In this document: positions 129 through 2,330 of the stretch, piece by piece | Numbering within the stretch: position 1 is the first letter of the stretch | How the letters are laid out: every line of letters starts with the position of its first letter | DNA from: a virus | Taxonomy: Duplodnaviria > Heunggongvirae > Uroviricota > Caudoviricetes | Virus record (IMG/VR): IMGVR_UViG_2671180755_000015 | Reading direction: 5' to 3' (one strand) | DNA length: 9,584 bases | Notes under the pieces: generated by a model | What the model was told of the DNA's origin: nothing | Database searches by the model: none | The model's input: only the letters and a program-made list of their open reading frames with translations | Made by a program: the position numbers and the translations under genes

Positions 129-2018
129 TCATAGTGAATCTGTCCCGCCTGATTTGACCATACCGCGATAATCCAGAGCTGCCACACCTGCATCAATACG
201 GACTTTCCAGGCCACGCCGTCAACGATAAAACCTTCCTGCTGTTCAAGGTAAGGCTCGTCATTGCCATCAAGATAAGCCACCTCGATTGTGTCCGTTCCC
301 TGTGCGGAAAGCATGTACCATTGTTTTTCGCTGATATCATCAAGGCGGGGATCGACGATGATATCAAGTAGCTTGTGATACGGGTTAAAGATCCCGCTGT
401 TTTTATCAGCCCCGAAAGGTGCGGTTGAGTTAATCATCTGCAACGCGCGATCTTCCAGTGCTGCCGGAACTAAAAGGAATTTAGGCGCAATATTCAGCAC
501 TTCGCCATTTTTGTCCTTCTGTGTGCGCATCAGGTGACGTGCTGCACTAAGTCCCGGTGTTGTCAGTCCTGCTTCAATCAGGTTGCTGTGTTTTTTGTCA
601 AACAGCGCTATTCCGTCAGAAAGTTTTACGTTGCCTGTAAGCACCAGATTAACCAGATTTCCCACCGTTCTTGATGCAGCACGGCCCATAGCCATTGGCA
701 CCGTTGATAACTGATCAAGGTCATCATTGATTATCGCCTGGCGGGTAATGCTGAAAATATTCCCGTAAGTAGCCAGCGCGATGGGTTCACCGCGATCGCT
801 GGTGGTGATGTATTTATATTCTGCCCCTTCCGGCACTTTGTTTAACGTTGAGAAGCCATTCATACCAACGCGGCGGGCTTCCCGGAAGTTTGAAAGGGAA
901 CCTTTTTTCGTCCACTGGCGGAATGTTTCGCCGCTGTGCTCCCAGCCTGCAAGCACTGATTTTTCAGCGCCACCAGCAAGAATATCGGTAAAATCGCTGC
1001 TGCTGTGGGTGAATGCCGCGTTTACTATCTGCGAGCGTGTGCCGTAGCTGCCCGTGCTTATACCACGATGGGTTAATGATGCCTGTGCCATATCGAAAAG
1101 GCTCATCATGGCGTAAGGATTACCGCGTTCGGCCCGTTCGTGACCAAGACGCGCATTAAGCCCCTGGCGCATTGCATCGCCGGTTATGTTGCCGTTATCC
1201 GTGTACGCGTAGTAAAGATTTGCGGGGGTGGTTTTGTTTGTTGGCGTTGATTCTTTACCCATAGCGAGTAAAAGGCGTTCGCGTGCATTCTCAACGCTAC
1301 ATTCTGAATCAGCAAGACAACTTATAGCCAGGTCGTTATATCTTCCGTTGAACGTGCCAAACAATTCACGGATGCCGTTAAGTCGTTCCTGTTCGCCACT
1401 GGTAGTTTTCTGGCTGATCATGCTTTTAATTTTTTCCGGCATATTTGAAAAATCTCCGATTCGTTTTGATTCAATTCGGGCCATTGCTGTAATCGCGGGT
1501 ATAACCTCATCTGCGAAGCCGTTAGCCTTACACTCATTGCCATCCATCCAGGTTTCCGCCTCCATCATGGCGGTGATTTCCTGTTTGCTCCTGCCCGTTC
1601 TTCCGGCGTAGGTTTCCGCCATCGTGTCGCCCAGCTTGTCCATCAGGTCAGCAAAGCGGCGAACGTCGCCCGACACTCCGGCAGTAACACCACGGGGGGC
1701 ATGTATCATCATCATCGCGTTTTCAGGCATAACGATGTGATCGCCACACATGGCAATAAACGAGGCCATAGAAGCCGCCATGCCTTCAATGTGTACAATT
1801 TTCTTTGCCGGATGATTTTTCAGGGCGTTATAGATAGCCAGCCCTTCAAAGATGTCGCCACCAGGTGAATGGATGCGAAGATGGATTTCAGACGCATTAC
1901 CACACGCGTTGATCTCGTCAGTAAGTGCCGATGCTTTTACACCGTACCCGCCGATCTCGTCATAAATGCGCACATAGACAACATCTGCCATAGCCTTAAT
2001 GGAAAACCATGTTTTCAT
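129..2018 (-). CDS. Prohead protease (ClpP/S14-like) fused to an HK97-fold-type major capsid protein
   Basis: 629-aa ORF. The N-terminal ~190 aa carries ClpP-family signatures (serine motif GMAASMASF, histidine motif MMMIHAPRG). The remaining ~430 aa has the length and character of a scaffold-linker plus major capsid protein. The ATG at 2016-2018 overlaps the stop of the upstream small ORF (ATGA). Family assignment is from motif recognition only. Confidence 0.8.
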   Translation of the reverse strand: MKTWFSIKAMADVVYVRIYDEIGGYGVKASALTDEINACGNASEIHLRIHSPGGDIFEGLAIYNALKNHPAKKIVHIEGMAASMASFIAMCGDHIVMPENAMMMIHAPRGVTAGVSGDVRRFADLMDKLGDTMAETYAGRTGRSKQEITAMMEAETWMDGNECKANGFADEVIPAITAMARIESKRIGDFSNMPEKIKSMISQKTTSGEQERLNGIRELFGTFNGRYNDLAISCLADSECSVENARERLLLAMGKESTPTNKTTPANLYYAYTDNGNITGDAMRQGLNARLGHERAERGNPYAMMSLFDMAQASLTHRGISTGSYGTRSQIVNAAFTHSSSDFTDILAGGAEKSVLAGWEHSGETFRQWTKKGSLSNFREARRVGMNGFSTLNKVPEGAEYKYITTSDRGEPIALATYGNIFSITRQAIINDDLDQLSTVPMAMGRAASRTVGNLVNLVLTGNVKLSDGIALFDKKHSNLIEAGLTTPGLSAARHLMRTQKDKNGEVLNIAPKFLLVPAALEDRALQMINSTAPFGADKNSGIFNPYHKLLDIIVDPRLDDISEKQWYMLSAQGTDTIEVAYLDGNDEPYLEQQEGFIVDGVAWKVRIDAGVAALDYRGMVKSGGTDSL

Positions 2019-2209
2019 AGCCAGGCCCCTAACGTTGCCCTGTACCAGTATTCAACCGCGCTGCGTGTGATTTGTCCTTTCGTGGGTACTGGCATACCCG
2101 GGTGATTATCTTTGATGAACTGCTGATAGCGTTCGATCTTCTCCATAGTTCCGGCGTCTATGTGTACCGTGGCACTTTTATCCGGCTTTCTGGTGTTGTT
2201 CTCTGGCAT
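2015..2209 (-). CDS. Small protein (64 aa from preferred start) translationally coupled to the capsid gene; function unknown
   Basis: The ORF track gives 2015..2242 (75 aa), but its first ATG-ATG has no Shine-Dalgarno. The in-frame ATG at 2207-2209 is preceded by GGAGG at 7-nt spacing. The stop TGA overlaps the capsid ATG. Confidence 0.5.
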   Translation of the reverse strand: MPENNTRKPDKSATVHIDAGTMEKIERYQQFIKDNHPGMPVPTKGQITRSAVEYWYRATLGAWL

Positions 2210-2330
2210 AAATCCGCCTCCGTTTTGATTAACGGGCATCATTATTGATCGATAAAAGTAATAGATAAATAATTTTCTACCTGAAAATCAGATTATGATT
2301 TTTCTGATTATTCTCAGAAAGGCAAAGTTA

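Follow-up and report, generated by a model that had tools for sequence, protein, structure and literature searches.

A protease/capsid polyprotein gene with a small coupled partner in a satellite embedded in the terL gene of a Stx1a prophage: a putative satellite capsid module

The window analysed here is the whole 9,584-nucleotide (nt) stretch of viral DNA in IMG/VR record IMGVR_UViG_2671180755_000015, and the subject is the late module at its left end, in which a small gene and a coupled gene for a fused protease/capsid polyprotein lie between two cos-like regions. By its gene content and surroundings the element is a Gram-negative phage-inducible chromosomal island (PICI) in the helper-embedded configuration, and it lies in the terminase large subunit gene (terL) of a Stx1a-converting lambdoid prophage, its helper. 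Overall, we read the region as the late module of this satellite, with a polyprotein that would be built into satellite shells, and give this a probability of roughly 0.55; the making of capsid shells by the satellite is our best guess for the role of the module. The order of the module is terminator, cos copy A, promoter-like block, gene for a 64-aa protein, fusion gene, terminator and cos copy B, and its features are as follows.

2637-2661, minus strand: intrinsic terminator 3' of the SSB gene, a hairpin with a U-run, and the upstream limit of the mosaic module.
2475-2640, minus strand: cos copy A, which aligns with the helper cos and lies upstream of the small gene.
2286-2309, minus strand: dyad AATCAGA-N10-TCTGATT, upstream of the promoter-like block and partly conserved in a chromosomal E. 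coli relative (L008).
2241-2270, minus strand: promoter-like block TTTATCTATTACTTTTATCGATCAATAAT, 30 conserved nt.
2217-2221, minus strand: Shine-Dalgarno GGAGG for the 64-aa protein, read from the sequence.
2015-2209, minus strand: gene for the 64-aa orphan protein (PHROG 4934), the stop of which overlaps the fusion start as ATGA.
129-2018, minus strand: 629-aa fusion open reading frame (ORF), from the ORF list, Pfam, NCBIfam and PHROG.
1494-2018, minus strand: ClpP-like prohead protease part of the fusion (aa 1-175).
1179-1493, minus strand: helical scaffold-like linker of the fusion (aa 176-280).
132-1178, minus strand: major capsid domain of the fusion (aa 281-629).
101-123, minus strand: intrinsic terminator 3' of the fusion gene, GGCGGC-ACCA-GCCGCC with a U-run (-15.1 kcal/mol).
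1-100, minus strand: cos copy B, incomplete at the left end of the window; its cosB side runs about 130 nt past the window.

An earlier note, made from the letters of the window, had proposed that a single 629-aa polypeptide joins a ClpP-like protease to a capsid protein, and the database searches bear this out. Residues 41-173 match Pfam CLP_protease (E 3.8e-33), residues 331-623 match Phage_capsid_4 (PF25209, E 8.3e-55) and the protein belongs to PHROG 133 (E 8e-281). The whole fusion scores 892.1 bits against NCBIfam NF045540, 'ClpP-like prohead protease/major capsid protein fusion protein', for which the curated cut-off is 475 bits, and RefSeq gives the 629-aa protein the same name. The catalytic residues, on which the protease part of that proposal depended, are intact: Ser83 (GMAASMAS), His106 (MIHAP) and Asp170 (GFADEV) all align with the triad positions of solved ClpP chains. 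A profile search with the C-terminal 349 residues and their stand-alone relatives matched the Mu-GpT-type capsid structures 8rkx, 8rkc and 9jod (E ~1e-12), and together with the Pfam match this supports an HK97 fold of the C-terminal domain at the level of sequence only. The capsid-domain family comprises 10,811 clusters at 50% identity, and most of its best-scoring representatives are fusions of 620-750 aa. The helper carries a fusion protein of its own, to which the satellite fusion is 52% identical overall and compared with which its linker is about 30 residues shorter.

The ratio of non-synonymous to synonymous substitution rates (dN/dS) was computed against a 90%-identical variant. The fusion gave 0.095 at a dS of 0.57, its three parts 0.08-0.12 (protease and scaffold-like part 0.11 each) and the small gene 0.086, values which show purifying selection on both genes. 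Among satellites of E. coli and Klebsiella, at three kinds of integration site, the capsid domains are 68-92% identical, whereas they share 57-61% with those of helpers, and the helper domains of E. coli and Klebsiella are 82-83% identical to each other. A search of 50,697 phage records gave 125 capsid-domain matches, all below 60% (best 57.6%), and zero matches for the 64-aa protein. Since the satellites resemble each other and the helpers are at most 61% identical to them, the capsid gene is probably not a recent capture from the present helper. It appears instead to be a separate, satellite-borne lineage with a satellite-only partner, as judged from a small sample of seven sequences and from the database searches. 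These data bear on whether the gene might be a captured late gene which persists as a decaying passenger with no present role, as would agree with the description of PICI late zones as taken from helper prophages and then reduced by loss of genes (PMC10111431). A dN/dS of ~0.09 at a dS of ~0.57 and an intact catalytic triad argue against decay, as do the satellite-only lineage common to several genera and the occurrence of the full module in 142 of 5,426 complete E. coli genomes. Because of the selection and lineage data the passenger reading is strongly disfavoured, and we consider it very improbable.

The small gene is coupled to the fusion gene, as had been suggested earlier, by the ATGA overlap. 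Its longest form covers 2015-2242 on the minus strand, and GGAGG sits 7 nt 5' of an internal ATG at 2209. The earlier reading had noted this ribosome-binding site and left the start codon ambiguous; the site stands and the ambiguity does not, as homologues with an intact N-terminus begin at the internal Met and the Prokaryotic Genome Annotation Pipeline (PGAP) also annotates the shorter form, so that the true gene is 2015-2209, encoding 64 aa. The family of this protein contains about 90 clusters at 90% identity, and all of the named sources are Enterobacterales. No Pfam domain was found in any member, and the 64-aa protein itself had no match even at E 10; its PHROG group, 4934, is listed as of unknown function. 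Two subfamilies share the core VH[IL]DA.T..[IL]..Y...P..P.P...Q[IV]VR..V..W. Searches with BLASTP and tblastn found nothing for the idea that the protein is a remnant of the C-terminus of the helper portal, or kin of the small terminase (TerS) or another helper gene. A link between the subtype (C-terminus TLGAWL or GFASGGEQ) and possession of a TerS by the satellite was also considered and rejected, as the Enterobacter and Yersinia loci do not fit it.

Two roles may be considered for the 64-aa protein: it could be an assembly partner of the polyprotein, which would fit the strict translational coupling, or a small DNA-binding regulator, which would fit the residue pattern. According to the second of these, which applies to the small protein only, it would be a ribbon-helix-helix-like DNA binder that regulates the module promoter or reads the satellite cos and not a capsid assembly factor. 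The two ends of the conserved core (VH[IL]DA.T..[IL]..Y, then Q[IV]VR..V..W) and the predicted layout of a basic, disordered N-terminus followed by helices at 19-35 and 44-63 are compatible with the strand-helix-helix arrangement of such proteins, and the region immediately 5' of the gene contains the dyad and the conserved promoter-like block. However, the formal fold and profile tests for a recognisable ribbon-helix-helix protein were all negative: Pfam gave no match even at E 10, no similarity to CopG or Arc was found with hhalign, solved structures searched with profiles yielded two chance-level hits (E ~1) for one alignment (A4) and none for another (A8), and Foldseek found no match to the model. 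The strict coupling to the capsid gene, seen in every context, agrees just as well with a structural partner. We regard the DNA-binder role as possible, at rather less than even odds.

The flanks of the module form a direct repeat of about 100 nt (13-111 and 2550-2648, 74% identical), and both copies align with the intergenic region between the lysis genes and terS in the helper prophage. From this alignment and the comparison with lambda, both are identified as cos sites. Both copies and the helper region align with the lambda end junction; lambda ...ACGGGTCCTTTCCGG...TTACG/GGGCGGCGACCT is matched by ...GCGGGTCCTCCTGG...ACACG/GGGCGGGCGGCG. We take cosQ of lambda to lie within the aligned stretch. 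The lambda end positions, read from the lambda record itself, were used for the placement of cosN; when the termini of phage records were taken as a guide, the matches fell inside records or near arbitrary starts. In copy B a cosQ-like GGGTCC lies at 93-98, and the cosN core, of 12 nt (GGGCGGGCGGCG), is predicted at 56-67. This copy is 96.8% identical to the helper from cosQ to cosN and 60.6% on the cosB side. Copy A has the reverse pattern, with 87.5% from cosQ to cosN and 91.3% on the cosB side; its cosQ (AGGTAC) and its cosN core (GGGCGGAGGGGCG, 2592-2604) are both changed and degenerate, and it keeps a cosB side of the helper type. In about 410 further E. coli genomes the match is confined to 4-105 of the window; those listed are O157, O145 and O111 strains, in which there is no annotated gene at this position or a hypothetical protein, and we read these matches as the cos sites of related prophages.

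The terminators that the earlier reader had placed on either side of the module are real hairpins with U-runs, but the flanks are more than terminators, as each hairpin is followed by a cos site. The region upstream of the small gene had likewise been described as a control region, and this agrees with the promoter-like block at 2241-2270, which has a weak -35 (TTATCT), a 16-nt spacer that includes GATC and a good -10 (AATAAT); the 'GATTAT-type repeats' reported there correspond to the dyad at 2286-2309. The block is kept in four lineages, including embedded E. coli, chromosomal E. coli and Klebsiella satellites, and is a putative promoter of the module, with the dyad as a possible operator. 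The GATC, a Dam site at 2247-2250, is kept in the E. coli and Klebsiella relatives and might tie expression to the replication state.

Seven contexts of related satellites were compared, from four genera (Escherichia, Klebsiella, Enterobacter and Yersinia).

Klebsiella satellites (L002-L006), inserted in the helper's own protease/capsid fusion gene and carrying both the fusion and the small partner.
Satellites in the E. coli chromosome, close to clpS or rpoD.
Another satellite embedded in terL in E. coli.
Satellites in the E. coli chromosome, at tRNA-Pro and at clpS/cspD.
Enterobacter satellites.
Yersinia satellites, adjoining fis.

Wherever it is called, the small gene overlaps a fusion gene of 628-641 aa by 4 nt. 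At the clpS/cspD locus (L015) PGAP annotates no small gene, yet the DNA is 98% identical to the window. The layout of cos, promoter-like block, small gene, fusion and cos is present in some of the related satellites only; it is complete in L008, with SSB, terminator, cos, promoter-like block, small gene, fusion, terminator and cos in that order, and 3' of the second cos of L008 lie a full-length DUF1441 TerS gene and then a 93-aa gene. On their opposite strand the Klebsiella satellites have, in addition, a 449-aa gene and a HicB-like gene. Satellites that have different integrases and replication modules of the RepA type match window positions 1-2660 with an identity of 97.8% or more, which indicates that the module moves between satellites. 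The matches in the other satellites end at ~2660, and the upstream boundary of exchange is thus placed at the terminator just before cos copy A. Of the 'stand-alone cassette' proposed in the earlier note, the modular character is therefore upheld by this near-identity across different integrases. The module is not free-standing, since it makes up the late zone of a terL-embedded satellite of the PICI type.

The window differs by one base from E. coli O157:H7 strain 146N4, in which the element is 10,347 bp long, has TTGGATG(T/G)AGGG as the core at its boundaries and lies inside a gpA-type terL of a lambdoid prophage. The attachment (att) core was located as follows.

9552-9563 of the window; 11205-11216 and 21552-21563 of locus L007: att core.

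The prophage order is Q, stx1A, stx1B, lysis genes, cos, terS, N-terminal part of terL, island, C-terminal part of terL, a W-like gene, portal and the prophage's own protease/capsid fusion. The island and the split terL have the same orientation, with all of the genes on one strand. In the int-proximal core copy, TTGGATGTAGGG, a TAG ends the N-terminal (ATPase) fragment of TerL. Excision in silico from 146N4 restored an open 707-aa TerL with GpA_ATPase at 45-308 and GpA_nuclease at 330-648, so the insertion falls between the two domains. The int/terL junction was matched by 89 complete genomes, and in all 12 of the matches listed the integrase lies beside the terminase large subunit. A satellite in the terL of a Stx1a prophage was not found described, nor followed up, in the literature searched.

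Two other observations concern this site. In strain 2013C-3342 (L001 23552-23563) a near-identical composite has a T-run one base shorter before the att core, so that excision would not join the halves of terL in frame; either the helper is dead or the homopolymer was misread in sequencing. In O157:H7 strain ECP19-198 (L023) an island variant with a shared integrase end and other middle genes occupies the same terL site in a Stx1a prophage, and the site is therefore used by a mosaic population of satellites.

The position of the island bears on a further alternative, that the satellite homologue is a spare copy which sustains head assembly while a late gene of the helper is disrupted or delayed. 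The Klebsiella satellites with the same gene pair do sit in the helper's own protease/capsid fusion gene, and 11capE, for which the insertion site is a capsid gene, brings its own copy of such a gene (PMC10111431). Here, however, the interrupted gene is terL and the helper's own fusion gene is annotated as a complete coding sequence, and the same module occurs in chromosomal satellites at tRNA-Pro and clpS/cspD. We consider a spare-copy function improbable.

In our preferred reading, shells made from the satellite polyprotein, the events would be as follows. In the integrated state the Q-modified, terminator-resistant late transcription of the helper would read into the module; such transcription should enter the island because it is co-oriented with terL, and read-through of this kind into a co-oriented island has been proposed by Tommasini and colleagues (PMC10111431). 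Excision would restore terL, after which the putative promoter of the module would drive expression, and the helper terminase would be complete only once the island has left. The polyprotein, which could form shells by itself on the helper portal since it has its own protease and a scaffold-like region, would assemble there and trim itself, and the resulting shells, possibly smaller than those of the helper, would enclose satellite DNA cut by the helper's terminase in copy B, the cosN of which is identical to that of the helper. The 64-aa protein would be made in step with the polyprotein, as assembly partner or as DNA-binding regulator of the module. By arithmetic, a 10.35-kb genome would fit a lambda-sized head as a tetramer and a smaller head as a monomer or dimer.

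Several points weigh against shells made by the satellite. In EcCICFT073, deletion of the capsid homologue did not relieve phage interference and the DNA was found in phage-sized heads (PMC6092414), and PICI capsid genes have been reported as dispensable for transfer (PMC10111431); that a homologue can be dispensable and the heads phage-sized calls for caution. As the island has no portal gene, the satellite capsid domain, only 57% identical to that of the helper, would need to fit the helper portal and decoration protein. The structural models do not help either: the AlphaFold model of the fusion, from a shallow alignment of 14 sequences, is unusable (predicted local distance difference test, pLDDT, 41), and that of the 64-aa protein, from which the helices given above were taken, is of low confidence (pLDDT 61.7).

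The homology with the helper's polyprotein also admits a Ccm-like role, in which the satellite product is a minority subunit or poison that co-assembles with the helper capsid protein, for example in pentamers, forces small or aberrant heads and mainly blocks the helper. There are precedents in Ccm of SaPIbov5, which occupies pentamers and redirects capsid size (PMC8569155), and in PmCI172, which encodes a capsid homologue and makes small capsids (PMC6092414). Such a subunit would not obviously need the complete protease and scaffold-like region that are maintained here by selection, and the failure of the EcCICFT073 deletion to relieve interference (PMC6092414) speaks against a blocking function as well. 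We hold this explanation to be unlikely.

A more elaborate version of satellite-made shells may also be put forward. The 64-aa protein and the polyprotein would together be a dedicated capsid-determination module giving satellite-only shells, probably smaller, on the helper portal; copy A, in which cosB is of the helper type and cosN is crippled, would serve to titrate the small terminase of the helper as a sink; and the island, since it sits in the terL of a Stx1a phage, would gate production and spread of the toxin phage. This combination is speculative and, taken as a whole, doubtful.

The assignment of the island to the Gram-negative PICIs is based on its layout, size and cos sites. The window encodes a tyrosine integrase, an AlpA-like helix-turn-helix protein, Bro-N, YlcI/YnfO-like, Icd-like and DUF4222 proteins, a D5/P4-type primase and SSB, with the main genes all on the minus strand. 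The integrase and alpA-like genes are at one end, the primase/replication module is co-directional with iterons adjacent to it, and the 10,347-bp element has helper-like cos sites and no tail or lysis genes. The features outside the late module are given below.

8154-9392: integrase gene.
7937-8161: AlpA-like helix-turn-helix gene.
3609-5441: D5/P4-type primase gene.
3396-3610: dense array of iterons GGTGAACAGT, direct and inverted, just downstream of the primase gene.

The iteron array is presumably the satellite replication origin. Genes for a portal, head-tail connectors, HNH, terS and terL are absent, so the island cannot make and fill capsids alone and is not a capsid-forming PICI (cf-PICI). 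A divergently oriented stretch at 6050-7300 holds the YlcI/YnfO-like (6442-6621) and Icd-like genes, with about 390 nt (6907-7298) free of called genes; a 370-aa ORF at 6042-7154, which PGAP does not annotate, seems to be spurious. No RNA family reached the gathering score in the whole window, no C4 or isrK RNA of the P4 type was found at 5900-8000 even below threshold, and PADLOC matched no defence system.

The Rpp protein of EcCICFT073 retargets the helper TerS, and that island has two cos sites with helper-like cosQ/cosN and foreign cosB (PMC6092414, PMC6739421). Copy B has the same constitution, with a helper-like cosQ and cosN and a different cosB. Nevertheless, no ORF of the Rpp kind (144-153 aa, winged helix-turn-helix) was found in the island, the ORFs of unknown function have no Pfam family, and the 94-aa and 106-aa proteins had no match in the Protein Data Bank. 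The 94-aa gene (PHROG 1561, function unknown) lies 3' of cos copy B, just outside the window and 285-413 nt to the left of its start (L001 13587-13871), and showed no similarity that would make it a fragment of TerS or TerL, or an Rpp. In relatives a DUF1441 TerS gene precedes the gene of the 94-aa type; its full-length form, in L008, encodes 161 aa, and in L002, L019 and L021 TerS is present only as N-terminal fragments of 54-85 aa. By analogy, these fragments might act like Rpp; in this island, terS has been lost altogether.

Elements of this kind have already been described, and the fusion is a member of a named family. What goes beyond the literature found is the satellite-specific capsid lineage, the conserved orphan partner and the reciprocal mosaic of the two cos copies. 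Most Gram-negative PICIs carry capsid genes; in the one case tested the gene was dispensable, and a long-lived, satellite-only lineage under purifying selection bears on what these genes do. The capsid gene always travels with its 64-residue partner and in some satellites lies between two cos sites, and in O157:H7 the module sits inside the terminase gene of a Stx1a prophage. If satellite-specific heads are made, or helper packaging is blocked, the release of Stx1 phage and its efficiency of transfer would be affected, and the element would make it possible to study, in a tractable E. coli system, how a capsid homologue is used for capsid piracy. Were the capsid-determination version correct, the island would represent a stage between classical PICIs, which steal whole heads, and cf-PICIs, which steal only tails.

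Among known systems, the cf-PICI EcCIEDL933 (bioRxiv 10.1101/2022.09.08.507074) likewise encodes its own capsid protein and head maturation protease, whereas this island lacks the portal-to-terminase gene set listed above. The fused gene type is known from the tripartite capsid gene of the Salmonella phage Gifsy-2 (Effantin et al. 2010, as cited in PMC8538268). As in Gifsy-2 and NF045540, one ORF here contains a ClpP-like protease, scaffold and major capsid protein; unlike them, the copy is satellite-borne, has no portal gene upstream and belongs to a separate lineage at most 61% identical to the phage copies. SaPIbov5 is also a satellite of a cos phage with a homologue of the helper capsid protein, Ccm, which makes small capsids (PMC8569155). 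It differs in being Gram-positive, and size redirection is shown for Ccm and conjectured for the present satellite. To our knowledge, Ccm carries no protease fusion. EcCICFT073 (PMC6092414, PMC6739421) has the same int-alpA-primase backbone, two cos sites and a capsid homologue in its late region. The present island differs in its capsid type, in the helper-type cosB kept in copy A, in the coupled 64-aa partner gene and in that no Rpp homologue was found among the proteins compared with the Protein Data Bank or Pfam. The closest in organisation are the helper-embedded PICIs (HE-PICIs; 11capE and relatives) of Tommasini, Mageeney and Williams 2023 (PMC10111431), for which 14 insertion sites are named. 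They too are satellites of 10-11 kb, co-oriented within a late gene of a lambdoid prophage, with a cos region in common with the helper and four zones (integration, Bro, replication and late), the last of which contains the capsid gene. In contrast, the present island interrupts a gpA-type terL between its ATPase and its nuclease domain, its helper is a Stx1a phage, and its capsid gene is of the fused protease/scaffold/capsid type where theirs is of the lambda-E type.

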